The position numbers were made by a program, and so were the translations under genes. A model generated the notes under the pieces. The model made no database searches. It saw only the letters and a list, made by a program, of their open reading frames with translations, and had not been told where the DNA came from. Positions 2,471-58,818 of a stretch of DNA of 64,000 bases are shown one piece after another. Positions within the stretch are counted from its first letter, which is position 1, and each line of letters opens with the position of its first letter. The DNA is taken from positions 3,532 through 67,531 of the forward strand of contig MEUA01000010.1 in assembly GCA_001771505.1 (NCBI GenBank). The letters are read 5' to 3'. The DNA is from a candidate division WOR-1 bacterium RIFOXYB2_FULL_36_35 (GTDB lineage Bacteria; Margulisbacteria; WOR-1; XYC2-FULL-46-14; XYC2-FULL-37-10).

Positions 2471-2575
2471 TCAGGGGAAAAAAGAGAGTGTTGCAAAATG
2501 CTTATTTTTGAAAAAGATAAATTTACCAACAGTCCCAAGAAGGGAAAAAGAAAGAAAGTAAAAAAAACATTGAGC

Positions 2576-16648: not shown

Positions 16649-16738
16649 TTCGAATAAAAAATAAAAAAATTTCAGTTTATTTGCAAAAAATCCGGATATA
16701 ATTTAACCCTGATTATTAGGAGGAATTTCAAACAGTCT

Positions 16739-16817
16739 TAACCCCGATTATTCATACCGTAAGTAATGTTTGACAATTTGTTAGTTATTGATTCTGGGGT
16801 GAATAATCGGGGTTAAG
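16739..16817. repeat. 78-bp family-1 MITE-like element (15-bp TIR AACCCCGATTATTCA with a ~48-bp core); copy A
   Basis: TAACCCCGATTATTCATACCGTAAGTAATGTTTGACAATTTGTTAGTTATTGATTCTGGGGTGAATAATCGGGGTTAAG. Overlaps the fliJ stop codon (TTA at 16813-16815). A degenerate half-site AACCCTGATTATTAGG lies just upstream at 16705-16720. This copy is 100% identical to the inverted copy at 57821-57898. Confidence 0.85.
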
Positions 16818-35393: not shown

Positions 35394-35443
35394 GGGACTG
35401 TTGCGAAATGTCACCCTGAGCTCAGCCTAAGGGTGCGAAAACC
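35394..35443. repeat. Solo terminal repeat of the family-2 element (GACTGTTGCGAAATG) plus a hairpin, upstream of pheS
   Basis: 15/15-nt identity to the TIR of the element at 56180-56294, followed by a different hairpin (CACCCTGAGCTCAGCCTAAGGGTG). Confidence 0.5.
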
Positions 35444-35517
35444 TTAATCCTCTTATTAAAAGATAATTATAACAAAAAAGTTGAAACTTTGTACTGTTTT
35501 AAACGAAAAAAAATTAT

Positions 35518-38500
35518 ATGACAATTCAAATATCTACAAAAAGCATCTATGCCGCAAAAAAAATAAAAGCAGGGCTAGGTGCTGTTATTGAGTCTGAAGG
35601 GAAATGTCTTGCCATCACAAGGCTTTCTACTCAAAGAACAGATTTACAGCCTCTTTACACTGAAACAACCTCTTTAAAAATAGTCAGAGGGATTACCGGA
35701 AGGATTGCGATAAGAAGCAATCCGAACTTTGAATTTGTAGATCCCGCAAAAAGGGCAAAAAGGATAAAAGAACTTGTCTCTTTAGGCAACGCAAATGATT
35801 TAGAATCAGCAGCGATGCTCCTTTTTTCCTGTGGTGATTCTTTTGAAACAATTCAAAAAATTATTGAAGAACAAAAACTGGAGCATCAGCTTGTCTTACT
35901 ATGCGAGGCTGGTAATCCCAATTCTGTGGCTGATTACTTTTATCAACTCGCGATAAATGACAAAAAAGAAGGAATAAATAAAATCATAGAAATTTCTCGG
36001 GGCAAAACGGCAGCAAAATATGTTTACGGATTTACAAGTTACAGGCGATTGGCCGTGGTCTTGTTCAAACTTTCTATGAAGAATAACGGCTCAGGAAGGA
36101 AAGTTGTTGATAACATATTTTGCGCTGCCAGAGAACTTTTAGAACCTGGAATATTAGAGTCTGCCTTAAATGAATTAAACAGACAAATGCCTCATATTTT
36201 TAAAAATTACGCTGAATTCTCAATACCACAAATAAGAACTCCTCTATTTTTTGGAAGTCCACAAACAGGATTCAAAGAAACATCTACGTTTAAAACAGAA
36301 GGGAGCTCTCTCTTAAAAGAAAGAATGGAGGCAAGAAGAGATCTGACAATTGAAGAAGAAATAATCGCGCCTGAAATATCAAAAACAAGAAGACCGGTCT
36401 ATTCAAGTTGTAAAGCATTAGTCTTAAGAAATGACCCTGTGAGTAATTTATCAAAGTACTGGGATTTTGGATACGCAGATGCAAGGGAAACACTAATAGC
36501 CTCAGTCCAGGATCTGACAAGAAAAGGAGATTATAAATCAGCCTGTTTTTTATTGTTTGGTATACCAAGAAGAATAGATGAAATATCATCCGTCTTAAGG
36601 ATCGAATATTTAACATCAGAGGAGATAAGGGGTATTTTAGAAGTATTAGACAATGAAGGATTAAGAAGTTTTTTAGTTGAAGTCGCAAAATATGGCAGAG
36701 AGAAAGAAATTGGGGAATCTGTCGAACGTCTTACAAACTATATCGATCCATTTTTTTATGGGATATTACTGACATTATCAAAAATGCCAATACAAACTTT
36801 GACGGATGTTTTAGACATGATGATAAACCATAAAGAGGAAGAACAAAAAGAGGCCGCATATTATCTATTAAGAGAAGGATTAAATCCGTTTAAAACTTAT
36901 CATTTAAAATATACAGAGGCTTTGGAAACAATGTGCGCAAGAGATGGATATTTACAACCTATAGATTTTATTTTGCATGGGAAATTGCTCGTAACCGATG
37001 AAGCGGTTGCAATTCCAAATACAAGAGGCAAAATAAAATTTTACGACAATTTAATGCGTGAAAACAATCCAAGTATTGTAAGGCTTAAAGCTATGGTATG
37101 TTTAGCTCAATTGGGAAAAGGGGACATCGCGAAAAAATATCTTTCCGATAAATTCACAAAAATCCTACTACTAGAATGTATATTAGAACTTGCGGCTGAA
37201 CATAGCCGATTTCTAACATTATATAATCTAGATATTTTACTCGGTCTGGTTGACTATGATTGTGAAGCGGTAGCTTATTATGACGATAAAATTCAGATTC
37301 TTGGCATTAATAACGAAAAAATATCAAGAGAAGATTTTATTTCACGATTAAGAGATGCCTTTTTGGACACCCTTATTCCGGATAGTGCGATAATTGATTT
37401 CATAGATTACCTTGATAAAGCAACTGCAGCAATAAATCAGATAAAAAGAAAAGAACAGGAAAAAGAATGGTGTCCTGAATTAACAGAAGGGTATCTTAGA
37501 TTAATGGAATTCCAAGATGCAAGGTTTATCCCGTGGATTAAAAAGGGTTTATCACATTTAGACGTTGAAATCAGGACTGCCGCACTCAAAAACATCCATC
37601 TTTTAGAAAAAAGGGCCGCCGTAAAAATAGCAAGAGAAGTTGTACATTTACGGAAAAGGAGAAGGCCTACTTACAGCGATACACGCCTAAATTGGAATTA
37701 TAATGAGGGAGTTCAAGGATGCCTTGCTTTGATCAAGCTAGGAGAAGTTTCAGAGGGACTCACAGCATTATTAGATTTTGCCCTTGATTATTACGATTCA
37801 CCAAAGAGAACAACAAAAGAGACCAAACCAAAACTTGAAGGTCACTCCAAGCAACTTTATCTTATTACTCAAAAAATATTCGAGGCTCTTCTTGATAAAA
37901 AAACACAGGAAGAGAAAGAAAAACCTTGTACTACAGCAGCTCTTGAGTATTTAAAACATCCCGAAGCCGCGAACCATTTGATATTAAGAATATCTAAAGA
38001 CAAACTCTCAAAAATATTAGAACAACTTTCAGAACTCGAGTCAAAGGGGACTGCAAACATTACCTCCCAAGGGTTATTTAGTTTAACCAGTTATGAAATA
38101 GTTTTAAGAAAGTTACTAGAAGATGAAAAATACACAACTGCGTATGAGGTTATAGATAGCTTGAGCAACTTTTTGTTTCAAACAAGCAAAAAACCAAGAA
38201 CTTTCTATAGGACAAGAAGAAAAAAATATCTGCCATTGTTAAGACTAGTATGTTCAAAGCTCACAGAAACAAAATTATATATTGATATACCTGTTATGCT
38301 AAGGCTCGAACCAGATGATGTAAGCGCCATGTCTCTTGGAGGAGCGTTAAGACTACATTTTTTTTCAATAAGCATTTTAAATCTTGGGAAGGCGCATTCC
38401 AATAGAACATTAGATAATTTAGAAAAAGGGTCTACATTATTCAAAGATGAACTTGATCTTTTTAGAATTGACACATTTATAGAAGAATATGAAGAAAAAC

Positions 38501-38670
38501 AAATAACAAGAGAAATGTTTCTAGGCAACCTAATAGATTTTCTCCACGAACCAAACTGGCAGAATACTCTTGCAGGGCAATATGCTTATCACGCCTTACA
38601 AGAATATGATCCTGATCCCCCTGAGCTTACTCCCATCAACTTTAATCCGCCGATTTTTAAACGTTTTTAA
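35518..38670 (+). CDS. Hypothetical 1050-aa cytoplasmic protein with HEAT/ARM-like helical repeats
   Basis: Uninterrupted ORF with no signal peptide. HEAT-like repeat segments (e.g. PSIVRLKAMVCLAQLGKGD; HLDVEIRTAALKNIHLLEK). No catalytic motif recognised. Confidence 0.5.
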   Translation: MTIQISTKSIYAAKKIKAGLGAVIESEGKCLAITRLSTQRTDLQPLYTETTSLKIVRGITGRIAIRSNPNFEFVDPAKRAKRIKELVSLGNANDLESAAMLLFSCGDSFETIQKIIEEQKLEHQLVLLCEAGNPNSVADYFYQLAINDKKEGINKIIEISRGKTAAKYVYGFTSYRRLAVVLFKLSMKNNGSGRKVVDNIFCAARELLEPGILESALNELNRQMPHIFKNYAEFSIPQIRTPLFFGSPQTGFKETSTFKTEGSSLLKERMEARRDLTIEEEIIAPEISKTRRPVYSSCKALVLRNDPVSNLSKYWDFGYADARETLIASVQDLTRKGDYKSACFLLFGIPRRIDEISSVLRIEYLTSEEIRGILEVLDNEGLRSFLVEVAKYGREKEIGESVERLTNYIDPFFYGILLTLSKMPIQTLTDVLDMMINHKEEEQKEAAYYLLREGLNPFKTYHLKYTEALETMCARDGYLQPIDFILHGKLLVTDEAVAIPNTRGKIKFYDNLMRENNPSIVRLKAMVCLAQLGKGDIAKKYLSDKFTKILLLECILELAAEHSRFLTLYNLDILLGLVDYDCEAVAYYDDKIQILGINNEKISREDFISRLRDAFLDTLIPDSAIIDFIDYLDKATAAINQIKRKEQEKEWCPELTEGYLRLMEFQDARFIPWIKKGLSHLDVEIRTAALKNIHLLEKRAAVKIAREVVHLRKRRRPTYSDTRLNWNYNEGVQGCLALIKLGEVSEGLTALLDFALDYYDSPKRTTKETKPKLEGHSKQLYLITQKIFEALLDKKTQEEKEKPCTTAALEYLKHPEAANHLILRISKDKLSKILEQLSELESKGTANITSQGLFSLTSYEIVLRKLLEDEKYTTAYEVIDSLSNFLFQTSKKPRTFYRTRRKKYLPLLRLVCSKLTETKLYIDIPVMLRLEPDDVSAMSLGGALRLHFFSISILNLGKAHSNRTLDNLEKGSTLFKDELDLFRIDTFIEEYEEKQITREMFLGNLIDFLHEPNWQNTLAGQYAYHALQEYDPDPPELTPINFNPPIFKRF

Positions 38671-39446
38671 AAAATTTTATGCCGGAGCGCCTCATATAAT
38701 ATAATAGAAGCCGCCATTGCCGCATTTAGCGATTCGGCTTTCCCGGGTATTGGAATCTTTACAGTATCATCGCATATTTTTAAAATATCAGAAGGGAGTC
38801 CCACAGATTCATTCCCTATTAACAAAACAGTCGGTTGCTTATAATCAATATCCCAGTGCGTTTTTTTAGCTACCAAATCTGTCCCCAGTATCCTGTATCC
38901 TTTATCCTGTATCCCGATCAAAACAGAAAGGAGATTATCAATCTCAACAATAGGAACTCTGAAAATCGATCCCATCGTCGAGCGTACAACTTTTGGATTA
39001 TAAGGATCAACCGTCCCTTTTGAAACAATAATTCCAGATGCGCCCACAGCATCGACAACTCTTATCATGGTACCAAGGTTCCCCGGATCTTGTATCTCTA
39101 TGGGTAACAGGATTAAAGAATTAAGAGGATTAGAAGGCTTACGAAGATTAAGTAAATTGCTGATCTTATAATTTGTTTTTCTGCAAACGGCTAAAACCCC
39201 CTGAGGAGTTTCAACTAAAGACAGTTTTTTCATTTCTGAAGAAGATATTTTATAAACTTTTATGTTTTTCTTTTGGGCATCAATAATCGCAGAAACATCT
39301 TCAGAATAAACTATAAATTCAACCTCGCCAAATTTGATTGCCTCTTCTACAAGTTTTTCACCTTCAGCAACAAACAAAGATTCTTCATCGCGAATTTTCT
39401 TTTTATTAATAAGAGCCAAAGCCAGTTTGGCTTGTGATATCAACAT
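38667..39446 (-). CDS. TrmH/SpoU-family RNA 2'-O-methyltransferase
   Basis: SPOUT motifs: LLPIEIQDPGNLGTMIRVVDAVGASGII, LLIGNESVGLP, IPIPGKAESLNAAMAASIILYE. Confidence 0.8.
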   Translation of the reverse strand: MLISQAKLALALINKKKIRDEESLFVAEGEKLVEEAIKFGEVEFIVYSEDVSAIIDAQKKNIKVYKISSSEMKKLSLVETPQGVLAVCRKTNYKISNLLNLRKPSNPLNSLILLPIEIQDPGNLGTMIRVVDAVGASGIIVSKGTVDPYNPKVVRSTMGSIFRVPIVEIDNLLSVLIGIQDKGYRILGTDLVAKKTHWDIDYKQPTVLLIGNESVGLPSDILKICDDTVKIPIPGKAESLNAAMAASIILYEALRHKIF

Positions 39447-40321
39447 TGGCCCAAAGCCGCACGGAAAGCAGTGTTATCGCAAATAAATTCATTTTCTATT
39501 AATAATTTTCTGAAGTTTAATAAATAAGTAAAATGTTTTTCACAAGAAGGAAAAACAGCCACACGTCCACCTCTCGCAAATGTGGTTCTGACAAACCAAA
39601 ATATAGAAAAATTTTCCATTGCTTCACATAAATCCATGCCTAAATACTGATTTAAAAATTTGAATGAGCCTATGTCATAGAACTTACAAGTCAATCTTCC
39701 CAAAATCATAGCCTTATTAAATAAAGCAAATTCTCTTTTTAAAAAAACATCGTTTTTGGGATCCCTTGAATTTAATCCGTTAAAAACAAAAGGGAAATGC
39801 GAAGACGAGTCACTATTGCAATCAGGGAAATAACACAATTCTTTTCTTCTATTATCCATGACACAAGAAAATTCAAGTGGAATTAAAGGATAAGTCCTAT
39901 TCCCAGGAAAGGTAAGAGCCAAATCCAAAATCGTTCCAGAATCAACGCTAATTAATTCGCTCTGCGCTCTGGATGCCCTGTGAATTATAAGTCTTGGAGT
40001 AGGATCATAAGAAAAAGCAAAATAATTTCCGGCATCCTCATTTAAATAGGCTATAACTTCTTCTGGCACCTTATCTAACTGACTTAACAATTCTATGTCT
40101 ACACTTCTTCCCTTTTCGCCACGCAAAATATCATAAACCAAACTAGAATCCAATAAGTTTAATTTGGCATTACTAAAATCGATTTTACGCATTCCAAGGA
40201 TAACCGCTTTATTTTGGCCAGCATTAGCCACAACCCCAATCCCTCCCCTATCCCAAGAAAAAAAACCTCTCCCAAATTTTTTAACGAATTCCGGAAATCT
40301 TATCGTCGTTTTGTTTAACAT
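39440..40321 (-). CDS. Hypothetical protein, 293 aa
   Basis: Long ORF overlapping the trmH-like gene by 7 nt. Cys-rich. No recognisable motif. Confidence 0.4.
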   Translation of the reverse strand: MLNKTTIRFPEFVKKFGRGFFSWDRGGIGVVANAGQNKAVILGMRKIDFSNAKLNLLDSSLVYDILRGEKGRSVDIELLSQLDKVPEEVIAYLNEDAGNYFAFSYDPTPRLIIHRASRAQSELISVDSGTILDLALTFPGNRTYPLIPLEFSCVMDNRRKELCYFPDCNSDSSSHFPFVFNGLNSRDPKNDVFLKREFALFNKAMILGRLTCKFYDIGSFKFLNQYLGMDLCEAMENFSIFWFVRTTFARGGRVAVFPSCEKHFTYLLNFRKLLIENEFICDNTAFRAALGQC

Positions 40322-40452
40322 TCGACTATTCCTCTCTTCTACAATAAAAAATTATTATAACATTTGTGTTGTTGATTTTATAGTAGAAGGGCTTATAATT
40401 TAATCACATGATGGTTTGCGATTCATAATATCAGCCGTGCAAAACAAAAAAG

Positions 40453-42921
40453 ATGAATAACATAAAAACGACAAAACAAAAAAAGATAATAAATATATTT
40501 TCATGCGTAATCTTTATAATACTGCTTTTTTCTTTAACAAACACCTCGAATGCGTCAATATTTCAAGACACGCAAAATAATCTCCATTGTATACTGAAGA
40601 ACAACTATTTCAGATCAACTAATTTTGGAGAAACATGGAAAGAATTTACCTTGCAATCAACATTTGAAACAAATGGTATTATTCAAGAAAGATCAAATGG
40701 AATATTATCTTTCTTCTGGGTGAAAAACAAAAAATTATATGAAAAAGAGAGTAAAAACAAAGGTTCGGACTTTTCCGAGCCAAGACAAATCCTGCAAGAC
40801 TTCTCTCCCCTCTCTTTCTTTATAAAGATAATAAATGGAACGTCTCATATAGTATATCAAAGGGAAAACACTATTTTTCATAGGTTTTCAATAAATAATG
40901 AAAAAAAATTCTCCGAGGACCAAATATTAAGCAGTTTTCCAACCATTGAAGGCTGGAGTTTTTTTGCAGATGAAAATGTTTTAAGAATAAACATCGTATC
41001 GAATAAAAAAATCTATCAAATAGAATCAATCGACCAGGGAAATACATTTACAAGTCCGGAACAAATATATTACAGTAATAATGATATAACCGAAATAGCA
41101 AGTTCTCTTTTTGTTTTCTGGATTGAAAAAAAGGCAAATACCTGCAAAATACTTTTTCTTGAAGGGAAAAATACTGAGCCTACAAAAATATATGAGTCAA
41201 CAGAAACATTATCAGATCTTCAGGTAAAAGCAACATCCCAATCCATAATTATCTCTTTTAATGAAAATAAATTCTCAAAAAAAATACCAATGATTACAAG
41301 ACTTTTTACAAATGGTCAAATAATCAATCAACCCAAAGAAGCAACTAATTCTCCTTATGAAGATGGAAAATTTGTTGATTGCTTAACAAAAGAGAATAAA
41401 CTTATAGTGTTTTTAACTTCAGATGATAACACATTAAAAAAAGAAGAATTTGGAAATTATCCTCCGGAGGTAAAAACAACTCTCCCTGAAGACGGATTTA
41501 TTACAAATTCAAACAAAATTCTTTTTAAGTTTTTAGGATCAGATATTGATCAAGACAATCTACTATTTGAGATTAAAGCAAATAAATATAAAAATCTTAA
41601 TCCCGACAAGCCCTTAACTTTCAAAGAATTGACATCAGAAGCAAAACTAGAATTTCCAGATGAAGAAGGTGACTATTATTTAGAAACATCCGTAACAGAT
41701 GGAATTGCAAAAAGAGACTCAAAAGAAATCACAAAAATTATTATTGATAAGACTCCTCCTGAAATTATTATTACGAAGCCTTTACATAATCAAATTACGA
41801 CAAATTCGGAAATAGAAACATCATTTCAAACGTCTGAAGAATCATACATTAAATTAAATGGGAAAGATTATTACCTAAAAAAGGGAGATAAACTATCAAC
41901 TCTTATTATGTTAAAAGAAGGGGAAAACAAAATAGAGCTAACAGCTATGGATAAAGCTGGTAATGTAACAACAGAATCTTTATATGTCACTTATAATGCA
42001 AATGCCCCTGTGATTTTAATAACCAAACCAACACCTATGAGCTGGTTTAAAAGCGGTTCCACAATATTTTTAGAGATTTCTATATCAGATAACAACAATG
42101 ATGTTGAAGATTTGCCAACAATATCAATTAATAGCAAAGAAGTCTCGGCCTTTCTTATAAATGACACTTCCCAAAATAAAATCAACGGTTTCATTGAACT
42201 CCCTGAAAACTTGAAAGAAGGCCAAACCCTTTTAAATTTAACTGTCAAAGATAAAAACGAAAATACAGGAACAAATCAAATCACTTTCGGCATAGATAAT
42301 AAACCCCCTTCTCTTATAAAAAAATCAATCTATGCTGATTATGATAAAATAAGCATTCCAATTGATGAATCAGGATCCGGTTTAGACTCAACATCCATAA
42401 GATTAAAAGTCTACCAAGGAAGTTTAGAAGTATCAGGAAAGATAGAGATTAAAAATTCATTGATTGAATTTACCCCATCTACTAAGTTAACCAAAGAGAG
42501 CTACACTCTGCAATATTCATTTTCCGATAATGCCGGAAATCTTGCCAGTCCTGAAAGCTTTAATATAATGCTTACTCCTGACACTAAAATTTTTGCAACA
42601 ACAAATACCTCCTATTCATTTCAAATTACAAATCTGCAAAATGGACCTAACCCTTTCAATCATGATAAAGATCAAGCAATCATCATAAAATATATTTTAT
42701 CTTCCTATCCTGCCAACATTGAATTTTACCTGTTTTCCATAACAGGGAAGTTATTATATAAAACATCTTTTCTTGCAACAAACACAACAGAACATATAAA
42801 CTTTAGGGGAGTCGACAACTACGGAAATTATCTTTCACCAGGAGTTTATCCTTATATCCTGCAAGCAAAAGATAACTACGGAACAAAAGATTTAAAACGC
42901 GGAAAAATTATAATCTTTTAG
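40453..42921 (+). CDS. Secreted 822-aa protein with Ig-like middle domains and a C-terminal FlgD-Ig / T9SS-type sorting-like beta-sandwich
   Basis: Signal peptide MNNIKTTKQKKIINIFSCVIFIILLFSLTNTSNA. Repeated IIDKTPPEIIITKP-type Ig-like segments. C-terminus NPFNHDKDQAIIIKYIL...VYPYILQAKDNYGTKDLKRGKIIIF fits the FlgD_ig/Por-secretion-tail pattern (NPFNP..T.I.Y.L....V.L.IYD..G..V..L....G.H...WDG.D..G..V.SGVY.Y.L). Confidence 0.6.
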   Translation: MNNIKTTKQKKIINIFSCVIFIILLFSLTNTSNASIFQDTQNNLHCILKNNYFRSTNFGETWKEFTLQSTFETNGIIQERSNGILSFFWVKNKKLYEKESKNKGSDFSEPRQILQDFSPLSFFIKIINGTSHIVYQRENTIFHRFSINNEKKFSEDQILSSFPTIEGWSFFADENVLRINIVSNKKIYQIESIDQGNTFTSPEQIYYSNNDITEIASSLFVFWIEKKANTCKILFLEGKNTEPTKIYESTETLSDLQVKATSQSIIISFNENKFSKKIPMITRLFTNGQIINQPKEATNSPYEDGKFVDCLTKENKLIVFLTSDDNTLKKEEFGNYPPEVKTTLPEDGFITNSNKILFKFLGSDIDQDNLLFEIKANKYKNLNPDKPLTFKELTSEAKLEFPDEEGDYYLETSVTDGIAKRDSKEITKIIIDKTPPEIIITKPLHNQITTNSEIETSFQTSEESYIKLNGKDYYLKKGDKLSTLIMLKEGENKIELTAMDKAGNVTTESLYVTYNANAPVILITKPTPMSWFKSGSTIFLEISISDNNNDVEDLPTISINSKEVSAFLINDTSQNKINGFIELPENLKEGQTLLNLTVKDKNENTGTNQITFGIDNKPPSLIKKSIYADYDKISIPIDESGSGLDSTSIRLKVYQGSLEVSGKIEIKNSLIEFTPSTKLTKESYTLQYSFSDNAGNLASPESFNIMLTPDTKIFATTNTSYSFQITNLQNGPNPFNHDKDQAIIIKYILSSYPANIEFYLFSITGKLLYKTSFLATNTTEHINFRGVDNYGNYLSPGVYPYILQAKDNYGTKDLKRGKIIIF

Positions 42922-42945
42922 TTTTTCCTATAAGAGCAAAAAATA

Positions 42946-43812
42946 ATGAAATCTCCTCAAATATTATTCGAAATATACTTAGATATGTATTTAACTCAAT
43001 CATATAAAGCATCCTATAGCTCTGAATTATATAATCCCCATTTGCAAAGATATTTACTTAGAGCAGCACAATTACGTACTCACGGAGATTCAAGCGGTTC
43101 AAGCCTATCAACAAGAACTCTAATAGAATCAAATCTACTGTTAGTGGTAAGTATTGCACACGAACACCATTTATCAACTGGTTACCCATTGGATGACCTA
43201 ATACAAGAAGGAAATATAGGCCTTTTTAATGCCGCTCAAACATTCATTCCGTCCAAAGACACAAAATTTTCTACTTATGCCGCAAACGGAATTACAAAAG
43301 CAATACGAACAAAACTAAAAGCATTAAGAAAATATCAAAGAGAAGTTTCAGAAGATGAAATACCAAGACCACCATATCATCACATAACACCTGAAAAATT
43401 AATTTCTGAAAGGCTGCATTTTTATCTTAGACTAGGAAATCTCTCTTCAGAAGAAGCAGAAATAATTAAACTGACTTTGCAAGGATATGATACCCCTGAG
43501 ATAGGAGCTAAATTAGGGGTATCAAAAGCGGCTGCCGGCCAAAAAAGGACAAAAGCTTTGTTAAAATTAAAAATTATTGATGCAAAACGACTTCCGGCAA
43601 AGTTACTTTTGGATGATGTTTTTATTGAAAAATTATTTGAATATAAAGACGATCATTATCTTATCCTCAAACATGACTCTTATGAATCAATTCGTTTAGC
43701 AAAAAGCTTGATAGAAGATGAAGATTCTTTATATACAATGTTATGTATTCTGGATACAAATCACGCTCAGCAGGTAAAACGTCAAAAAATCAAATTGCGG
43801 CAGGCAGCTTAA
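42946..43812 (+). CDS. Divergent sigma-70 family sigma factor (regions 2 and 4 only) with ~80-aa C-terminal extension
   Basis: Region 2.1-2.4 (TRTLIESNLLLVVSIAHEH...LDDLIQEGNIGLFNAAQTFIPSKDTKFSTYAANGITKAIR) and region 4 HTH (EAEIIKLTLQGYDTPEIGAKLGVSKAAAGQKRTKALLKLK). Starts 24 bp after the secreted-protein gene. Confidence 0.6.
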   Translation: MKSPQILFEIYLDMYLTQSYKASYSSELYNPHLQRYLLRAAQLRTHGDSSGSSLSTRTLIESNLLLVVSIAHEHHLSTGYPLDDLIQEGNIGLFNAAQTFIPSKDTKFSTYAANGITKAIRTKLKALRKYQREVSEDEIPRPPYHHITPEKLISERLHFYLRLGNLSSEEAEIIKLTLQGYDTPEIGAKLGVSKAAAGQKRTKALLKLKIIDAKRLPAKLLLDDVFIEKLFEYKDDHYLILKHDSYESIRLAKSLIEDEDSLYTMLCILDTNHAQQVKRQKIKLRQAA

Positions 43813-43986
43813 CCCCGATGGGGCTGTTACATAATGGTCATTCCCGTGAAAACGGGAATCTATTTTTCATAAAACAACCCCGATTATAATAATCGGGGTT
43901 AAGATGGATCCCCGCTTTTGCGGGGATGACAAATTGCAAAAACTATTATTACGCAACAAGCCCCCGATTAGGATAATCGGGGTTAA
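43810..43986. repeat. Composite/nested repeat block: family-2 element interrupted by a family-1 palindrome and flanked by family-1 (half-)sites
   Basis: AACCCCGAT half-site (43810-43820). Family-2 copy (43822-43960, TIR-like GGCTGTTACATAATGGTCA ... ACGCAACAAG, hairpins ATTCCCGTGAAAACGGGAAT and ATCCCCGCTTTTGCGGGGAT). Inside it, a perfect family-1 AACCCCGATTA-TAA-TAATCGGGGTT (43876-43900). Then CCCCCGATTA-GGA-TAATCGGGGTTAA (43961-43986). Confidence 0.8.
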
Positions 43987-43987
43987 C

Positions 43988-45373
43988 TTAAAATGCCCCA
44001 TGAGCTGTCAATACAACAGGAATTGTTCTAAAGAGAATTTTAACATCCAACCACAATGACCAGTTTTCAATATAGTAGATATCAAGCCTTACCATATCCT
44101 CAAAAGGAAGTAGCGAACGGCCCGACACCTGCCACAACCCCGTAATTCCGGGAGCAACTCTAAGCCTTTTCTTGTGCCATGGAGAATAATTCTCCACCTC
44201 TCTTGGAAGCGGAGGTCTTGGCCCTACTAAACTCATCTGGCCCGCAAATACATTAAATAGCTGCGGAAGTTCATCAATGCTTAGCCTCCTAATCCACCTG
44301 CCGATCCTTGTCATGCGAGGATCATTTCTTATCTTAAAGATATGGCCCTCAACTTCCGATTTATCTTTTATATTTAAAAGCATATTTTCCGCTTCCTGAA
44401 CCATTGAGCGGAATTTTAGCATGGAAAAATCTTTTCCATCCTTGCCTATCCTAATCTGCTTAAAAAAGATAGGCCCATTAGAATCTAATTTTATTAACAA
44501 AGCAATTAAAATAAAAAATGGAGACAAAAATAATATTAAAACAAAAGACATGACAACATCCACAAGTCGTTTAATAAAAGCATTAAACCCTGCCAATCCT
44601 ATCTCAGAAATTGTAACTAAGGGGACACCTCCAACCTCATCAACACTAACCCTGGATGCTATTATTTCAAAAATTCCAGGGACTATTTTAAAGCTGATCC
44701 CCAAGGATTCACATTCCGTAATAAGATCTAATATTCTTTGATAAGGGATCCTACTTGTTGCGAATATAACCTCTTGCGCCGAAAGCTTTTTTATTAATTT
44801 CAACAAATCGGTACTATTTCCCAAAACCGGTATCTCATGAAAAACTTTTCCATTTTTTTGCGCATCATCATCAATAAAGGCGACAGGTTTTCTCTCTAGT
44901 GTTTTATCGGACATAAACCTCAACCCCAAGGTTTGCCCCATATCTCCAGCGCCAACAATTAATACACTTTTTAATCCAATCCCTTTTTGCAATAAAAGCC
45001 GCTTTACCAATCGAAGAAGGAAACGAAAAATAAAGAGAGATAAAAAAGAGATAATCCAAGCATTTAAAATAACCAGCCTGGAAAACCAGAAGCCACGATA
45101 CAAAAATAAAAGCCCGAAAAGAAATAAAGAAGAAAACGTAACAGATACAAACAAAAGAGCTGCTTCATCAATAAAATCGCTTATTTTTTTATCATATAAC
45201 CCGAATAACTTAAAAATAGCAAGCCATAATAAAGTTATAAAAACTAAAGTTCCAAAATAATCCTTAAAAAGAGCCGCCTTTTCAAAAACTATAAAAGTCA
45301 TTACCTCAAACCTTAGGTGATATGCCAATAAAAAAGAAAGATTTATCAAAACAGCATCAATTAATATTTTCAT
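43988..45373 (-). CDS. Polyprenyl-phosphate sugar phosphotransferase (WbaP/WcaJ-like bacterial sugar transferase)
   Basis: N-terminal TM bundle, Rossmann-like segment VLIVGAGDMGQTL, and C-terminal sugar-transferase domain (KRLVDVVMSFVLIL...GPIFFKQIRIGKDGKDFSMLKFRSM...DELPQLFNVFAGQMSLVGPRP). Confidence 0.85.
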   Translation of the reverse strand: MKILIDAVLINLSFLLAYHLRFEVMTFIVFEKAALFKDYFGTLVFITLLWLAIFKLFGLYDKKISDFIDEAALLFVSVTFSSLFLFGLLFLYRGFWFSRLVILNAWIISFLSLFIFRFLLRLVKRLLLQKGIGLKSVLIVGAGDMGQTLGLRFMSDKTLERKPVAFIDDDAQKNGKVFHEIPVLGNSTDLLKLIKKLSAQEVIFATSRIPYQRILDLITECESLGISFKIVPGIFEIIASRVSVDEVGGVPLVTISEIGLAGFNAFIKRLVDVVMSFVLILFLSPFFILIALLIKLDSNGPIFFKQIRIGKDGKDFSMLKFRSMVQEAENMLLNIKDKSEVEGHIFKIRNDPRMTRIGRWIRRLSIDELPQLFNVFAGQMSLVGPRPPLPREVENYSPWHKKRLRVAPGITGLWQVSGRSLLPFEDMVRLDIYYIENWSLWLDVKILFRTIPVVLTAHGAF

Positions 45374-49719: not shown

Positions 49720-49723
49720 ACAA

Positions 49724-50749: not shown

Positions 50750-50806
50750 AACAAAACCCCTTTAAGAAAATGAAAAATGAAAAACAATATGGTTATTAAT
50801 TTTATC

Positions 50807-51403
50807 CTAAAAAAGCTCTCCATTCAATAAATAGTGAATTAGCTTAATGTACTCAAAAGCTATCGGCTCCGTATCTTCTCGCCTTGTCCACCAGGAATCT
50901 GGGTTTAACGCAGAAGCTTGAACAGGATAGCTCAAAACCCTTATGTTTTCCTTTAAACAGTATTTACGAGCAACAGCTCGAGCCCGTCTTGCGTGAAAGG
51001 GAGATGTAACTAAAATAATTGTCTTGGCGTTAAGCCTTTTTAAAATTGGAATTGAATATTTAATATTTCCAAGGGTTGATAATGATTTTTCTTCCATAAA
51101 AATATTTTTAGGCGGAACACCTAACGCAATTGCCTGGCTTTTCATATTTTGAGCGCTGGTTAATTTCCATATAATCGGGCCTCCGCTCATTAATATCTTG
51201 GGAGCATAGCCTTCTTTGTAAAGTTTTACGGCTTGATCAACCCTCTCCCCATTGCTATCTCCCGCAAGCACCAAAATAACATCGGATTTTTCAGGCTTAT
51301 CCTGAACCACCAGAAAATCATACATTTTATCAAAAATAAAAGGATGAAATAAAACAACAAAAAGAACAAGAGCAAAAATTACGATAAAAATTTTCTTAAA
51401 CAT
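50807..51403 (-). CDS. DUF218 (YdcF/SanA/ElyC-like) envelope-biogenesis protein
   Basis: TM anchor plus DUF218 core (VILVLAGDSNGERVDQAVKLYKEGYAPKILMSGG...ILVTSPFHARRA). The track ORF extends to 51457, but the Met at 51403 (MFKKIF) is the more plausible start. Confidence 0.55.
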   Translation of the reverse strand: MFKKIFIVIFALVLFVVLFHPFIFDKMYDFLVVQDKPEKSDVILVLAGDSNGERVDQAVKLYKEGYAPKILMSGGPIIWKLTSAQNMKSQAIALGVPPKNIFMEEKSLSTLGNIKYSIPILKRLNAKTIILVTSPFHARRARAVARKYCLKENIRVLSYPVQASALNPDSWWTRREDTEPIAFEYIKLIHYLLNGELF

Positions 51404-51800
51404 CTTTACCCCCGAAAGAATAATGCTTATGTCCAAAATAACTAGTAATAATAACAAGCCCTATGACAAAAATTTGCGCAATAACAGGACTTATTTTAAA
51501 AAACTCGACAATAACCGGCAACAAAACTAAATTCAAAATAAAAGCCACTCCGTAAACAAGATAAAACCTAATATATTCCTTCAAATAATCTCCTTTTGTC
51601 TTAAAAACAAAAAATTTATATCCGACATATGCGTTAGTTATGCTCAAAATGTTGCTGATCACCAGCAAAAAAAGATAATGAACATACAAAGAAAACAAGT
51701 AATACAATAAAACAAAAGAACCATAACCAAAAATTGTATTCCAAACACCTACAAGTAAATACGCGATTTTTTCTTTATGATTTATTAAAATTTTCTTCAC
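51396..51800 (-). CDS. GtrA-family small polytopic membrane protein (polysaccharide-associated)
   Basis: 134 aa with 4 TM helices and a GtrA-like N-terminus (YLLVGVWNTIFGYGSFVLLY). Confidence 0.6.
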   Translation of the reverse strand: MKKILINHKEKIAYLLVGVWNTIFGYGSFVLLYYLFSLYVHYLFLLVISNILSITNAYVGYKFFVFKTKGDYLKEYIRFYLVYGVAFILNLVLLPVIVEFFKISPVIAQIFVIGLVIITSYFGHKHYSFGGKDV

Positions 51801-51808
51801 ATTAATTT

Positions 51809-52738
51809 TTAAAAATTGATACGCTCTTCTTCAATAACAAGAGGCCTTTTTAAAACCTGGGTATGAATAGAACCTATATATTCACCTATTATACCTATAA
51901 AAAACAGTTGGACAGACGAAAAGAAAAACAGGCCTATTACCAAAGGAGCAATACCAACATCAAAATTATTCCAGAAGATAAGTTTATAGATCAAGTAACC
52001 AAAAGCCACAAAAATACTCATAGTTGAAACAAAAAAACCAAGCATCGTAGCTAATCTTAACGGAACTTTTGAGTAACTGGTAATGCCAAGCATTGCAACA
52101 TCATACAGATTATAAAAATTATTTTTTGCCCTCCCCTTTTCTCTTTTAGGCTGAGCATATTCTATTTTTGCAACCTCAAACCCAATTTCACAAATAAGGC
52201 CTCTAAAATACGGATAAGGATCTTTTATCGTTCTTAGCACATCCACGATTTTTTTATCGTATAATCCAAAGCCAAAAAAGTTTTTAATTTGTTTAATCTC
52301 TGAAAGTTTTTCTATGATGTCATAAAAAAGATTTCTAATGCCAAACATCAAAAAAGATTCCTTACTCTCCTTTTTCACCCCCACAACAATTTTATACCCC
52401 TCTTCCCATTTTTTTAAAAAATCCGCTATCATCTCAGGAGGATCCTGCAAATCCGAAGCTATATTGGTAACAGCATCCCCTTTTGCCTGCAAAATAGCAT
52501 GATAAGGAGACCGAATCCATCCAAAGTTCCTGCTGTTAACTATAATCTTAACTCTTTTATCTTCCTGCGCTATTTTTTTTAAGATACTAACCGTTTTATC
52601 TTTTGAATCGTTATCGATAAAAATATGTTCATAGGAATATTGTGTAAGGCCCTCAAAAACTTTTTTAACCCGCTTATACACCTCTTCAATATTTTCCTCT
52701 TCATTATAAGAATGAGTAACAACACTAATTAATTTCAT
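51809..52738 (-). CDS. Glycosyltransferase family 2 (polyprenyl-phosphate hexose synthase-like, DPM1/GtrB type)
   Basis: LISVVTHSYNEEENI, the DxD region (IFIDNDSKD), and C-terminal TM helices typical of GtrB/ArnC-like enzymes. Confidence 0.8.
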   Translation of the reverse strand: MKLISVVTHSYNEEENIEEVYKRVKKVFEGLTQYSYEHIFIDNDSKDKTVSILKKIAQEDKRVKIIVNSRNFGWIRSPYHAILQAKGDAVTNIASDLQDPPEMIADFLKKWEEGYKIVVGVKKESKESFLMFGIRNLFYDIIEKLSEIKQIKNFFGFGLYDKKIVDVLRTIKDPYPYFRGLICEIGFEVAKIEYAQPKREKGRAKNNFYNLYDVAMLGITSYSKVPLRLATMLGFFVSTMSIFVAFGYLIYKLIFWNNFDVGIAPLVIGLFFFSSVQLFFIGIIGEYIGSIHTQVLKRPLVIEEERINF

Positions 52739-52755
52739 ATTAAAAAATCTCCATT

Positions 52756-53805
52756 TTATTTTCCAAGATATTCTTCTATCTGATTAAAACAGATTGCTTT
52801 TACATCCTGTTTTTGCAGATAACAGTTTAGCCAATCAATGATTTTATCAAGAGCAGTTTTCAATGTCCATTTCGGATCCCAGTTTAATCTTGTTCTTGCT
52901 TTTGTTGAATCCAAGATCAAACAAGTCGTTTCATGGGGATGATCATTTGAATCAATTTCAAATCCATCTCCTTCTCCCAATCGCGTATACAAGTAATCTA
53001 AAATCCACTTAACAGATTTGATGTCTTTCTTGTCCGGCCCGAAATTCCATGCTTCTGAATATTTTTTGCTGTTTTCAACAAGTTTTTGAGCCAATATAAG
53101 ATAACCGCTCAATGGCTCTAAAACGTGTTGCCAAGGTCTTATCGAATTCGGATTTCTAATAAGAAGCTTTCTCTTAAACAGAATAGCCCTGAAAAAATCG
53201 GGAATCAACCTATCTTTCGCCCAGTCCCCACCCCCTATAACATTCCCGGCTCTTGCAGTTGCGATTCCAATAGACCCAAAAAAAGAATCTCTGTAAGCAG
53301 ATGTTACAATCTCCGAACAGGCTTTGCTGCTGGAGTAAGGATCATGCCCACCCAAAACCTCATCTTCTTTATATCCTGTTTTCTTCTCCCTATTTTGATA
53401 ACACTTATCTGTCGTAACATTTATAACAGCCTTTATGCTTTTACAACTTCTTGCAGCTTCCAAAAGGTTAACTGTTCCTATAACATTGGTAGTATAAGTT
53501 TCAACAGGATCTTTATATGATGCTCGCACTAAAGGCTGCGCTGCCATATGGATTACCACATCAGGAGCAGCTTTTAACATCGACTTTTTAAGTTCCCTAC
53601 CATTCCTAACATCATCAATTACAGAAGTTATTAAATTATCAATACTACAAAGCTCAAACAAATTAGGTTTTGTCGGAGGTTTAAGCGCATACCCCGTAAC
53701 CTTAGCGCCTAAATAAGAAAGCATTAAACATAGCCATGAACCTTTAAATCCGGTATGACCAGTAACAAAAACTCTCTTATTTTTCCAGAATATTTTATTG
53801 ACCAA
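52756..53805 (-). CDS. CDP-glucose 4,6-dehydratase-like extended SDR
   Basis: VFVTGHTGFKGSWLCLML Rossmann motif, YSSSKACSE catalytic motif, and overall RfbG-like length and architecture. Confidence 0.7.
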   Translation of the reverse strand: MVNKIFWKNKRVFVTGHTGFKGSWLCLMLSYLGAKVTGYALKPPTKPNLFELCSIDNLITSVIDDVRNGRELKKSMLKAAPDVVIHMAAQPLVRASYKDPVETYTTNVIGTVNLLEAARSCKSIKAVINVTTDKCYQNREKKTGYKEDEVLGGHDPYSSSKACSEIVTSAYRDSFFGSIGIATARAGNVIGGGDWAKDRLIPDFFRAILFKRKLLIRNPNSIRPWQHVLEPLSGYLILAQKLVENSKKYSEAWNFGPDKKDIKSVKWILDYLYTRLGEGDGFEIDSNDHPHETTCLILDSTKARTRLNWDPKWTLKTALDKIIDWLNCYLQKQDVKAICFNQIEEYLGK

Positions 53806-55684
53806 TGTTTACTATTATCTTTCCTTTTTGTAAAACGTTATAAATACCTTCCGCATCCAATTTCAACATTTTTAAAATTTCCGATCTCGTGCCATGTTCT
53901 ATGTATTGGTCAGGAAGGCCAAGCTTCAAAACAGGTTTATTGATCTTGTTTTCACTTAAAAGATCGATAACAGCGGAACCAAACCCGCCATTAACAGAAC
54001 CTTCTTCAAGTGTCACAATAGTTTCAAAACTGGTAACCATTTCTAAAATAAGATCTTTATCAATAGGTTTTGCAAAACGCGCGTTTACAACAGTTGTATC
54101 ACCCATTCTCTTGGCTACTTCCATTGCAGTATAAACCATAGAGCCCAAAGCCAAAATCAAAACTTTAGGCAAACCAGATTTTGAAACGACCTCAGCTTTA
54201 AAAAGTTCCATGTTTTTAAAATTATCATCAAGTCTTGTTGCTATCCCTTCACCTTTTGGGAATCTAATCGCCACAGGAGAATTAAGATTTATAGCCGTAA
54301 AAAGCATGTGTTGCAATTCATTTTCATCTTTCGGAGCCATTATTATAATGTTAGGAATAGTCCTAAGATAAGAAATATCAAAAAACCCATTGTGGGTTGG
54401 GCCGTCTTCTCCCACAATCCCCGCCCTATCTACAATAAAAACAACAGGCGCATTTTGCAAACAAACATCATGATGAATTTCGTCATATGCCCGTTGTAAA
54501 AAAGTTGAATAAATAGCAACTACAGGTTTTAATCCCCCTTTTGCAAGCGCTCCTGCAAATGTCACAGCATGTTCTTCCGCAATGCCAACATCAAAAAATC
54601 TGTTAGGGAATTTTTCCGCGAAGAGTTCAAGCCCTGTACCATCAACCATGGCGGCTGTTACCGCGACTATATTTGTATTCTTTTCCGCGATTTTCGCAAT
54701 CGCCTGACCAAAAACCTGGGTATAGGTTTTCTTATGATTGCCATTTTTCAATGTTTTTCCCGATTCTATGTCGAAAGGACCCGTACCATGAAACTTTGTC
54801 GGATTTTCTTCCGCGGAAATATATCCCTTCCCTTTCTTGGTCAAAATATGTAATAAAACCGGCCCATTAATCTCTTTTGCATGATGAAGAGTGCTCATAA
54901 GAAGTGGAAGGCTATGCCCATCAATCGGACCGAAATACTTAAACCCCATCTCTTCAAAAATAACATCAATTTTAAGTCCTGTAACTATATGGCGGGTCCT
55001 CTCTTTTAATTTTCGTGCAGATTCAAAAAGAGACTTTCCTTGAGGAAGTTTTTTAACCAGATTTTCCACTCTACCGCTCAACTCGTTATAAAAATTCGAA
55101 GTACGCACAACAGTCAAATATTTAGAAAGCGAACCCACATTTTTTGATATGGACATTTCATTATCATTTAATATTATAATCATGTTGCTTTTTAAAGAAC
55201 TCGCGTTGTTAATTCCTTCAAATGCCAAGCCACTGGACAAAGCGGCATCTCCAATAACAGCTATCACAGAATAATTTTCACCTTTTATATCTCTTGCATG
55301 AGCCAACCCCAATGCCTGAGAAATAGAAGTAGAGGCGTGACCTACCGTAAAAATATCATGAGGGCTTTCGGAACTATTTGGAAAACCGCTTATTCCTTTG
55401 AATTGCCGTAAAGAGTAGAACTTGTCTTTTCTGCTTGTCAATATTTTATGGGCATAAGCCTGGTGCCCCACATCCCAAATTATTTTATCTTTTGGGGATT
55501 CAAAAGTAGAATGAAGGGCAATAGCAAGCTCTACCGCTCCAAGACTGGAGGCAATATGTCCGCCAGTTTTCGATACAACTTTAATTATAATTGCCCTTAC
55601 TTCATCTACCAATTGTTGCAATTGTTTTGCAGATAGATGCCTTAAAGTTTCAGGCAATTTTAGTTCATCCAATAAACGTTTCAT
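53795..55684 (-). CDS. dxs: 1-deoxy-D-xylulose-5-phosphate synthase
   Basis: ThDP-binding GDG motif (VIGDGALSSGLAFEGINNA), the DXS histidine region (GHASTSIS), and transketolase-like domains. Confidence 0.9.
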   Translation of the reverse strand: MKRLLDELKLPETLRHLSAKQLQQLVDEVRAIIIKVVSKTGGHIASSLGAVELAIALHSTFESPKDKIIWDVGHQAYAHKILTSRKDKFYSLRQFKGISGFPNSSESPHDIFTVGHASTSISQALGLAHARDIKGENYSVIAVIGDAALSSGLAFEGINNASSLKSNMIIILNDNEMSISKNVGSLSKYLTVVRTSNFYNELSGRVENLVKKLPQGKSLFESARKLKERTRHIVTGLKIDVIFEEMGFKYFGPIDGHSLPLLMSTLHHAKEINGPVLLHILTKKGKGYISAEENPTKFHGTGPFDIESGKTLKNGNHKKTYTQVFGQAIAKIAEKNTNIVAVTAAMVDGTGLELFAEKFPNRFFDVGIAEEHAVTFAGALAKGGLKPVVAIYSTFLQRAYDEIHHDVCLQNAPVVFIVDRAGIVGEDGPTHNGFFDISYLRTIPNIIIMAPKDENELQHMLFTAINLNSPVAIRFPKGEGIATRLDDNFKNMELFKAEVVSKSGLPKVLILALGSMVYTAMEVAKRMGDTTVVNARFAKPIDKDLILEMVTSFETIVTLEEGSVNGGFGSAVIDLLSENKINKPVLKLGLPDQYIEHGTRSEILKMLKLDAEGIYNVLQKGKIIVNIGQ

Positions 55685-55695
55685 AATTAATCAAA

Positions 55696-56151
55696 TTAAA
55701 AAATGATTGTATATGCTAATACAGCGGTAATAACTCCCAAAAGTCCTCCGATAAAAACTTCAAAAGGAGTATGGCCTATAAGCTCTTTCATTTTTTCCTT
55801 TTCAGAAACTTTTTCCGAGTATATATCTTCTATGATTTTATTGAGTACAACAGCCTGCTGACCCGCCGCAAAACGAACCCCCATAGCATCATACATAACA
55901 ATAATTGAAAAAACCACAGCTACCGCAAAAATAGGAGATGAAAACCCTTCCGTTAAACCTATCATAAGAGTCATCGCGGACGACATGGACGAATGGGTAG
56001 AAGGCATCCCCGCGGCTTGAAAAAAATGGCTGGGATTAAATTCTTTATCCTTAAAATAATAATAAATTATTTTTAAAGTTTGAGAAAGCAAAAAAGCAAT
56101 TCCACCTGTTAGCAGCGGCACATTTGATAAAAGCATTGTTATCGTATTCAT
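55696..56151 (-). CDS. DUF212 / divergent PAP2-family membrane protein (YuiD-like)
   Basis: 151 aa with a GMPSTHSSM motif and four TM helices. Confidence 0.65.
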   Translation of the reverse strand: MNTITMLLSNVPLLTGGIAFLLSQTLKIIYYYFKDKEFNPSHFFQAAGMPSTHSSMSSAMTLMIGLTEGFSSPIFAVAVVFSIIVMYDAMGVRFAAGQQAVVLNKIIEDIYSEKVSEKEKMKELIGHTPFEVFIGGLLGVITAVLAYTIIF

Positions 56152-56179
56152 TTATTTAAAACTCCATTTAAAAATTTGA

Positions 56180-56294
56180 GACTGTTGCGTAATGACAGTT
56201 TTTGCGATTTGTCATCCCCGCGAAAGCGGAGATCCATTTTGTTTCCTGAGAAATAGATTCCCGTTTTCACGGGAATGACCATTTCGCAACAGTC
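56180..56294. repeat. Family-2 MITE-like element (115 bp, imperfect 17-19-bp TIRs GACTGTTGCGTAATGACAG / TGACCATTTCGCAACAGTC, two internal hairpins)
   Basis: Contains the hairpins ATCCCCGCGAAAGCGGAGAT and ATTCCCGTTTTCACGGGAAT. Homologous, in inverted orientation, to 43822-43960. Confidence 0.8.
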
Positions 56295-56321
56295 CCAATT
56301 TAGTAAATAAGCAATGAGTTA

Positions 56322-57800: not shown

Positions 57801-57820
57801 AATTAGCTCCTTTTTTATAT

Positions 57821-57898
57821 TAACCCCGATTATTCACCCCAGAATCAATAACTAACAAATTGTCAAACATTACTTACGGTATGAATAATCGGGGTTAA
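57821..57898. repeat. 78-bp family-1 MITE-like element, copy B (inverted orientation relative to copy A at 16739-16817)
   Basis: Reverse complement is 100% identical over 78 nt to 16740-16817. TTAA is present at both ends. Confidence 0.85.
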
Positions 57899-58787: not shown

Positions 58788-58793
58788 ATTGTT

Positions 58794-58818
58794 AACCCCG
58801 ATTATCCTAATCGGGGTT
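58794..58818. repeat. Family-1 palindromic element (TTAACCCCGATTA-TCC-TAATCGGGGTTAA)
   Basis: Perfect arms, with a loop complementary to the GGA-loop copies. Overlaps the hisF stop codon (TTA at 58817-58819). Confidence 0.8.

Follow-up and report, generated by a model that had tools for sequence, protein, structure and literature searches.

The window analysed here is a stretch of 64,000 nucleotides of contig MEUA01000010.1, belonging to a Candidatus Saganbacteria / WOR-1 genome from Rifle groundwater; its G+C content is about 35%. Identical proteins assign it to candidate division WOR-1 bacterium RIFOXYA2_FULL_36_21 / RIFOXYB2_FULL_36_35. Four members of one family of short repeats are located within these 64 kb: two full copies in opposite orientation (copies A and B), a mini copy (copy C) and a solo truncated end. 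[quoted passage not shown] These three units are all present in the sequence, but the inventory was incomplete, copy C having been overlooked. The analysis supports the MITE reading. The element is of an ordinary kind and belongs to a known class; a literature search with the terminal-repeat and hairpin strings retrieved no description of this family, the only match being a gonococcal construct sequence.

Four members of one repeat family in the window

Copy A is an intact element of 119 bp on the + strand (56178-56296), delimited by its sequence, its terminal repeats and copies 94% identical at other sites. It lies between ispA (56322-57167, - strand) and a gene coding for a DUF212 protein (55696-56151, - strand), whose start codon is situated 26 nt downstream of the copy; dxs is found further down in the same - strand gene row. 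The pentanucleotide AATTT is read directly at the left (56173-56177) and at the right (56297-56301) of the element. Both ends of A consist of a terminal inverted repeat of 17 nt, G[G/A]GACTGTTGCG[A/T]AATG, which is degenerate in copies B and C. The left repeat, GAGACTGTTGCGTAATG (56178-56194, + strand), occurs as an identical variant in the loci L130 and L110 of public contigs. The right repeat, GGGACTGTTGCGAAATG when read on the - strand (56280-56296), is identical to the left end of insertion sequence (IS) copies of the IS5 family. The interior contains the arm hairpins GTC-ATCCCCGC-GAAA-GCGGAGAT-C (56211-56234, + strand) and GTC-ATTCCCGT-GAAA-ACGGGAAT-C (56256-56279, - strand). Of these hairpins, which the prediction had described as common to both copies, the first displays a C.A mismatch in its stem in copy A and is perfect in copy B. 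The second hairpin fits the pattern ATTCCC-N8-GGGAAT and was scored as terminator-like on the - strand.

Copy B is a decayed element of 144 bp on the - strand (43820-43963), with three mismatches in each terminal 15-mer. It is placed between a sigma-70-like gene (42946-43812, + strand) and a convergent sugar transferase gene (43988-45373, - strand). The motif CCGAT is found on its left (43815-43819), within an interrupted hairpin belonging to another group of repeats of the window (family 1), and on its right (43964-43968). A repeat search of the window paired 43819-43877 with 56239-56297 (59 nt, 88% complementary) and 43901-43958 with 56183-56240 (58 nt, 90% complementary); the homology of A and B in opposite orientation was thus confirmed, with a similarity slightly above the proposed value of about 85%. 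The insertion noticed in copy B is also real, and corresponds to a 25-nt family-1 hairpin (CCCCGATTATAATAATCGGGGTTAA) nested in the middle of the copy at about 43878-43902 in an alignment. The limits initially assigned to the two copies (56180-56294 and 43822-43960) were revised to those given above, the ends taking in three more bases (GRG...CYC).

Copy C is a mini element of 53 bp on the + strand (2484-2536; GAGAGTGTTGCAAAATG...AATTTACCAACAGTCCC) which has degenerate terminal repeats and no hairpin core. It is intergenic, between the open reading frames (ORFs) 1483-2253 and 2576-3457, and a mini element of the same size class (54 bp) is present in the public locus L174 (9802-9855). The solo end (35394-35435, + strand) is composed of the terminal repeat GGGACTGTTGCGAAATG followed by the hairpin GTCACCCT-GAGCTCAGCCTA-AGGGTG; no right end was found for it. 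A distance of 20 nt separates it from the pheS start downstream; it is placed in the divergent region that precedes the gene at 35518, and its first 24 nt show full identity to one arm of the L174 mini element. The 15-mer GACTGTTGCGWAATG has three exact matches in the window (35396, 56180 and 56280). When up to three mismatches are allowed, seven matches are detected against 2.26 expected, a number reached by one of 100 shuffles, and two of the weaker matches, which face each other at 2486-2534, exposed copy C.

Size variants of 53, 88, 119 and 144 bp were observed, the 88-bp form at other sites, and the sequences are non-coding: no ORF of at least 80 amino acids overlaps A or B, none of at least 60 amino acids lies within C, and the ORF 2498-2731 (+ strand, 77 amino acids) overlaps only the 3' part of C and continues beyond it. 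Contigs of independent assemblies (L004, L005, L006 and L216) end within one of the repeats (copy B, copy A or the terminal repeat of the solo end), which indicates that the dispersed repeats fragment the assemblies of this organism.

Target duplications, further copies and a probable IS5-family partner

The original prediction had suggested a search for 2-bp target duplications. A duplication of 5 bp is observed instead, AATTT for copy A, CCGAT for copy B and AAAAA/AAGAA (4/5 matching) for copy C. Forty-one complete short elements (54-229 bp) were gathered from the window and from public contigs, and an exact 5-bp flanking duplication is present in 27 of them, with four more matching at 4/5 positions. 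As controls, adjacent 5-mers gave 0 matches and mismatched flank pairs matched in 0.8% of cases. No duplication length other than 5 bp stands out (exact 8-bp matches, 0/54), and the duplicated target sequence is composed of 80% A+T. The removal of copy B together with one CCGAT restores the hairpin TTAACCCCGATTAGGATAATCGGGGTTAAC. The 26-nt core of this hairpin, CCCCGATTAGGATAATCGGGGTTAAC, corresponds exactly, in reverse complement, to another family-1 copy at 58791-58816; copy B therefore landed inside a family-1 hairpin. One family-1 hairpin is thus the target of copy B, and another one is nested inside it. Hairpins of family 1 (TTAACCCCGATTAnnnTAATCGGGGTTAA) are distributed in the window at 2449-2471, 10784-10808, 15229-15252, 43878-43902, 43962-43987 and 58791-58818; two palindromic elements of 82 nt (16738-16819 and 57817-57898), mutually 99% complementary, have the same ends as family 1.

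The spacer between ispA and the DUF212 gene comprises 170 nt in the window. In three other Saganbacteria, whose DUF212 proteins are 81%, 77% and 76% identical to that of the window, the spacer is of 16 nt, the genes overlap, or the spacer is of 1 nt. Copy A is missing from the orthologous junction of these three relatives, and the 170-nt gap in the ispA-DUF212-dxs isoprenoid gene row is explained as a transposon insertion, not as a regulatory region. Elsewhere, two MITE copies (L119, position 433, and L157, position 1935) directly follow the GTCATT of another hairpin module, with the duplications CATTC and CATTG, which may hint at self-targeting or at a nesting preference.

The further copies on which the MITE reading had been made to depend were found. 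At least 13 other insertion sites of the window's subfamily, 89-97% identical to copy A, were detected in related Rifle contigs, which have a G+C content of 35-39% and also contain family-1 hairpins, and dozens of related elements occur elsewhere. The 88-bp deletion variant is present at three sites. The 144-bp variant with the nested hairpin is likewise present at three sites, each with its own duplication: CCGAT (copy B), TCTAT (L130:2641-2784) and AACGT (L174, about 10768-10911), the nested hairpin being at the identical position in the latter two. From the presence of each sub-lineage at three different sites, it follows that each one spread after it arose, and the different duplications around the nested variant indicate that the composite moved as a unit after nesting. 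The family-1 hairpin was thus acquired by copy B before B itself transposed. These are clean examples of palindromic elements that nest and subsequently move as composites.

A metagenome scan with the 17-mer end recovered at least 118 loci. From the genome collection, both 10-mer ends separated by a gap of 70-100 nt recovered 33 matches, which is about the chance expectation; approximately 6-8 of them are true relatives, from Omnitrophota (L072, L073 and L078), Elusimicrobia (L061 and L083) and Caulobacteraceae (L068). The 15-mer of the terminal repeat is too short for collection scans, and its 51 matches in viral contigs were single and at chance level.

The 17-mer ends were also paired with an inverted partner located up to 7 kb away. 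This pairing delimited elements of 1.15-1.33 kb, each containing one gene that codes for 320-339 amino acids. The N-terminal Pfam domain DUF772 (PF05598) and the transposase domain DDE_Tnp_1 (PF01609) were identified in the three proteins tested (3/3), and their scores with NCBIfam NF033581 (IS5_4) are 283, 147.5 and 139.9 bits, two of the three being above the cut-off of 140. By tblastn, transposase genes or fragments adjoin the terminal repeat in eight loci, and in L111, L126, L155, L160 and L116 the repeat precedes the IS5-family transposase gene by 60-125 nt. A pseudogene copy of the IS is represented by L177, and L141 and L207 are deletion derivatives of 522 and 554 bp that have kept both ends. 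Longer contigs contain further IS copies in L221 (duplication TACTA), L222 (duplication ATTTT) and L217, of which the ends are GGGGCTGTTGCGAAA, GAGCCTGTTGCGAAA and GGGGCTGTTGCAAAA. More than 1600 homologous transposases were detected at E<=1e-30, mostly on contigs of about 1.3 kb, as expected of collapsed IS copies. The few named homologues come from Ignavibacteria and Auribacterota, and a 46%-identical relative in a Rickettsiales plasmid starts with GGGAGTGTTGCAAGATGG, which resembles the end of copy C. The IS copies with these ends come from other metagenomes and phyla. At 12 of 15 positions, the terminal repeat agrees with the one published for the IS5-family element ISNme1, GAGACCTTTGCAAAA (PMC4596501).

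Further copies, a pattern of terminal repeats and target duplications, and a matching transposase-encoding IS are thus all found, and we consider, with a probability of about 0.88, that the repeats are decaying copies of a non-autonomous IS5-type MITE mobilised in trans by an IS5-family transposase. Such a transposase (DUF772 and DDE_Tnp_1), supplied in trans, would bind the terminal repeats, cut the MITE out and insert it across a 5-bp staggered break. Judging from their sequences, the ends of copy A still look usable, whereas those of copy B appear degraded and this copy is probably immobile; copy C and the solo end would be deletion remnants or a core-less form. The MITE reading explains the four odd repeats and several assembly breaks of the window, and documents, for uncultured phyla that have received little study, an IS5-type pair of IS and MITE that looks active and has a 5-bp duplication.

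Several points weigh against it. By tblastn, neither the window nor some 110 kb of related Saganbacteria-like contigs yielded an IS5-family transposase gene; a resident partner is therefore hypothetical, and mobilisation in trans is deduced from the identity of the terminal repeats alone. No presence/absence polymorphism of copy A was observed among the contigs with an identical DUF212 protein, all of which carry it (24/24), so that there is no sign of recent activity at the ispA-DUF212 site. The resemblance of the MITE to the IS is limited to the outer 12-17 nt, and the hairpin core has no counterpart in the IS, from which it follows that the MITE did not arise by simple deletion. Four IS copies (L111, L126, L116 and L217) have no clean 5-bp duplication, and the flanks in L126, in L116 and partly in L111 are inverted rather than direct repeats. 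Either these three copies were inserted at the centres of palindromes, or their true ends lie further out. The flanks of L116 form a perfect inverted pair of 15 nt, tccctctcccgcaag / cttgcgggagaggga. Finally, the duplications given by ISfinder for the groups of the IS5 family are of 2-4, 8 or 9 bp, and 5 bp is not known to be among them. The 5-bp duplication of the MITEs, of L221 and of L222, compared with these lengths, suggests an undescribed or atypical IS5 subgroup.

The hairpin core and its alternative explanations

The core is formed by two mirror-image arms, each consisting of GTC, a GC-rich hairpin of 8-4-8 (or longer) and C. In most elements the inward order is terminal repeat, a spacer of 9-11 nt, GTCAT, the GC-rich hairpin and ATC; the distance of GTCAT from the end is 26-28 nt in most subfamilies and 17/33 nt in the subfamily of the window. 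A second hairpin class has the layout ATyCT-GA-[short GC stem]-GAA-[stem]-GA-AGrAT, in which the inner stems vary. When arms were chosen solely by their invariant flanks (GTCAT-N16-ATC beside a terminal repeat), 41 instances were obtained, corresponding to nine distinct 24-mers. All six free pairs are Watson-Crick in seven of these nine; the other two, each seen a single time, have one mismatch apiece, and copy A of the window is one of them. No G.T pair occurs among the nine. An earlier alignment, made from sequences pre-filtered for pairing, had given the same result, three of eight pairs changing on both sides (C-G/U-A/A-U, C-G/G-C and C-G/U-A) and none on one side only. The covariation of the two hairpins that had been proposed as a check is thus seen across the copies, and the sequences indicate that the stems are under pairing constraint.

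In the Rfam search at gathering threshold, two tRNAs were the only hits that passed in the window, and with permissive settings the best sub-threshold matches of copy A were microRNA-precursor models, reflecting its long hairpin. The segment 56192-56283 also gave a sub-threshold match to the Francisella small RNA FtrB (26 bits for a gathering score of 66, E = 0.022), which probably reflects the hairpin shape only. As the arms are mirrored, one GAAA and one UUUC loop are found on either strand. Strict Watson-Crick pairing on both strands, mirror symmetry and the lack of an Rfam match together imply that a DNA palindrome fits at least as well as an RNA. As a best guess, we see in the core a palindrome of the DNA or a portable module, and not a dedicated RNA.

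The paired-hairpin core is unusual in that it recurs in several bacterial phyla and in the dRS3 repeats of Neisseria. This raises a possible, but on balance unlikely, alternative, according to which the full-length MITE is a composite: an independent palindromic doublet of the dRS3-RS-dRS3 kind would have been inserted into, or captured by, a core-less mini-MITE of about 50 bp, and the IS5-type transposase would mobilise the nested unit of 119 bp as a whole. Without the doublet, 48-54 bp remain, which corresponds in size to the core-less mini copies (53 bp for C, 54 bp for the L174 element), the distance of the doublet from the ends varies by subfamily (17/33, 19/29 and 26/28 nt), and the family-1 hairpin in copy B is a precedent for the nesting of palindromes. 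The doublet is also encountered outside this MITE frame. The right hairpin of copy A, ATTCCCGTTTTCACGGGAAT, fits the dRS3 consensus ATTCCC-N8-GGGAAT (PMC1797815), and the 20-bp dRS3 inverted repeat ATTCCCNNNNNNNNGGGAAT fits 56257-56276 and its counterpart in B (43840-43859), not the other hairpin (ATCCCC...GGGGAT). When the elements were compared by BLAST with a plasmid collection, the hairpins matched at 100% in at least 37 places per gonococcal chromosome, where one unit reads CGTCATTCCCGCGAAAGCGGGAATC...GATTCCCGCTTTCGCGGGAATGACG and is devoid of IS5-type ends or other terminal repeats; this collection contains two N. gonorrhoeae chromosomes filed as plasmids. A 27-mer, GTCATTCCCGCGAAAGCGGGAATCTAG, is identical in the Elusimicrobia MITE L061 and in a NIME unit of N. 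gonorrhoeae situated upstream of pilE (L224; PMC7593972).

Other frames are represented by a second MITE type in an Omnitrophota metagenome-assembled genome (L073, JAZDOX010000125.1, 2977-3105), with a GTCAT-hairpin doublet as core, the ends CACTGTAAAATTAGTT...AACTAATTTTACAGTG and the duplication TACTA, and by the plasmid AZO_p1 of Azospirillum lipoferum 4B (L223, 71-279), where the doublet is enclosed by the terminal repeat GGGGCTATGGCATTCACACA. An inverted CCCTCTCCCGC...GGGAGAGGG pair in turn encloses the Azospirillum frame. In the plasmid pMC4 of Sphingopyxis indica (L225, 122-200), a frame-less doublet of 79 nt, CGTCAT...ATGACG, is located inside the annotated ileS coding sequence, a situation reminiscent of the palindromes inserted in frame in Rickettsia. 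Of the 174 GTCAT-hairpin arms present in about 800 kb of fetched loci, 98 are beside an IS5-type terminal repeat and 76 are not, although some of these 76 are chance matches or have degenerate terminal repeats. However, the doublet is in no context surrounded by a target duplication or another insertion signature, it has no linked enzyme, and in the window the hairpins are confined to the MITE copies. The same picture would result if MITE families had recombined or had converged towards stable cGAAAg hairpins. The distribution points, though not conclusively, to the doublet as a portable module acquired by several MITE frames. The broader proposal that such a module is selectively maintained across Saganbacteria, Omnitrophota, Elusimicrobia and Alpha- and Betaproteobacteria, with the dRS3/NIME of Neisseria as its frame-less form, is in our opinion rather improbable. 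If it were true, the strict Watson-Crick compensation would reflect a DNA-hairpin function, and the hairpin could serve as a recombinase or replication-associated target or as a structure promoting MITE amplification.

A second alternative adds a role in RNA to the MITE reading. Read-through of copy A in the ispA-DUF212-dxs row would fold the whole element as one long hairpin, which could attenuate or process this transcript; copy A would then act as an attenuator or terminator, as a target of double-strand RNase or as an mRNA-stabilising structure, as reported for Correia and REP elements. An effect of copy A on the transcript is possible according to the predicted folding, and we regard the co-option as doubtful. 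The sense RNA of copy A (- strand) is predicted to form one long hairpin of -57 kcal/mol (z = -10.2 against shuffles), but a fold and z-score of this kind would be obtained from any element whose ends are inverted and whose core is palindromic. The - strand hairpin ATTCCCGTGAAAACGGGAAT followed by CTATTTCTCA was scored as terminator-like, but other subfamilies do not conserve the T-rich tail, which is weak. The insertion left intact the GGAG ribosome-binding site of the DUF212 gene, and copy A is fixed in the 24 contigs mentioned above. The stems are kept through compensatory changes, but one stem of copy A is mismatched, as in a decaying rather than a maintained element, and the absence of G.U intermediates among the stem variants argues against selection on RNA only. 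As to the part of the original prediction that saw a structured RNA in addition to a MITE, the stems do covary, but strict pairing and mirror symmetry fit a DNA palindrome equally well or better.

The other form of this idea, in which the units are not mobile DNA but encode a conserved small structured RNA or form part of one, is very improbable. The conserved stems, the GNRA-like GAAA loops, the compensatory changes, the strong predicted fold and the weak FtrB match would accord with it, but the units have no Rfam family at threshold, are surrounded by 5-bp target duplications, are found in both orientations at unrelated sites, are missing at the orthologous site of relatives, exist as truncated, nested and decayed copies, have ends in common with transposase-encoding ISs, and are mirror-symmetrical so that neither strand is special.

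An origin from another lineage of mobile elements is equally remote. Elements of the Tn3 family produce 5-bp duplications and have G-rich ends (GGGG), the derived miniature elements (TIMEs) having inverted repeats of about 38 bp; the IS6 family produces 8-bp duplications; RAYT/IS200-type movement is not known to leave a duplication or to require terminal inverted repeats. The 5-bp duplication recalls the Tn3-derived elements, the terminal repeat resembles that of IS26 (GGCACTGTTGCAAA; the string is present in IS26-related papers) and the inverted hairpin doublet resembles a REPIN, but every transposase gene found inside this terminal repeat is of the IS5 family (320-339 amino acids), none being Tn3, IS6 or Y1, the duplication is of 5 and not 8 bp, and terminal repeats and duplication are both present, contrary to a RAYT-mobilised REP/REPIN. 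A Tn3 (TIME) or IS6/IS26 origin was rejected because of these IS5-family transposases.

Concerning the other genes of the window, the 1050-amino-acid protein encoded next to the solo end (35518-38670, + strand) has no match in a Pfam scan, and the 293-amino-acid protein encoded at 39440-40321 (- strand) has no precomputed Pfam match on record. Two adjacent tRNA genes on the + strand (5725-5809 and 5830-5913) are 94% identical over a 5' part of 34 nt.

Comparison with known mobile repeats

The MITE of the window resembles the Correia elements (CREE) of Neisseria by its size of about 100-150 bp, its shorter form with an internal deletion, its position near or between genes and the long hairpin that it would form if transcribed. 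Correia elements have terminal repeats of 26 bp and a TA duplication. The terminal-repeat sequences are unrelated, and Correia elements are not known to contain the GTCAT hairpin doublet. They have also been described as bounded by a 51-bp inverted repeat (PMC1797815).

Like REP/REPIN sequences, the MITE is extragenic, occurs in multiple copies and contains two GC-rich palindromes whose inverted arrangement produces a larger hairpin. REPINs carry a conserved GTAG head and are not known to have DDE-type terminal inverted repeats or to make a target duplication. The MITE, unlike them, has a GTCAT head motif, DDE-type terminal repeats and a target duplication, which speaks against membership of the RAYT-mobilised group. 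The core ACTGTTGC and the following A-run are common to the terminal repeat and to the IS26/IS6 repeat, but the partner transposases are of the IS5 family and the duplication is of 5 bp, not 8 bp.

The closest counterparts are the IS5-derived MITEs ATR of Neisseria meningitidis, for which ISNme1 is the proposed parent, and BrickBuilt of Porphyromonas gingivalis (ISPg1/ISPg9) (PMC4596501). Like these, the element of the window is short and non-coding, has terminal repeats that match IS5-family insertion sequences and has an interior unrelated to the IS ('type II' MITE). The published repeats GAGACCTTTGCAAAA and GAGACCTTCGCA resemble GAGACTGTTGCGAAA, with agreement at 12 of 15 positions. It differs from both by its hosts (Saganbacteria, Omnitrophota and Elusimicrobia) and by its conserved hairpin-doublet core, and from BrickBuilt, whose duplications are irregular, by a regular duplication of 5 bp.

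The NIMEs have the organization dRS3-RS-dRS3, where dRS3 is ATTCCCNNNNNNNNGGGAAT, and were reported to be absent outside Neisseria (PMC1797815). The layout GTCAT-hairpin-ATC...GAT-hairpin-ATGAC of the gonococcal NIME is also that of the MITE core, and the dRS3 consensus is followed exactly by the right hairpin of copy A, whereas the left one (ATCCCC...) departs from it. NIMEs form arrays and have neither IS5-type terminal repeats nor duplications; in the window each doublet is single, framed by IS5-type terminal repeats and accompanied by the 5-bp duplication, and the array layout was therefore rejected. If the MITE core and dRS3 are indeed related, both the origin of the dRS3/NIME repeats, so far considered as genus-specific and of unknown origin, and the reason for stable hairpins in MITE cores would become testable.

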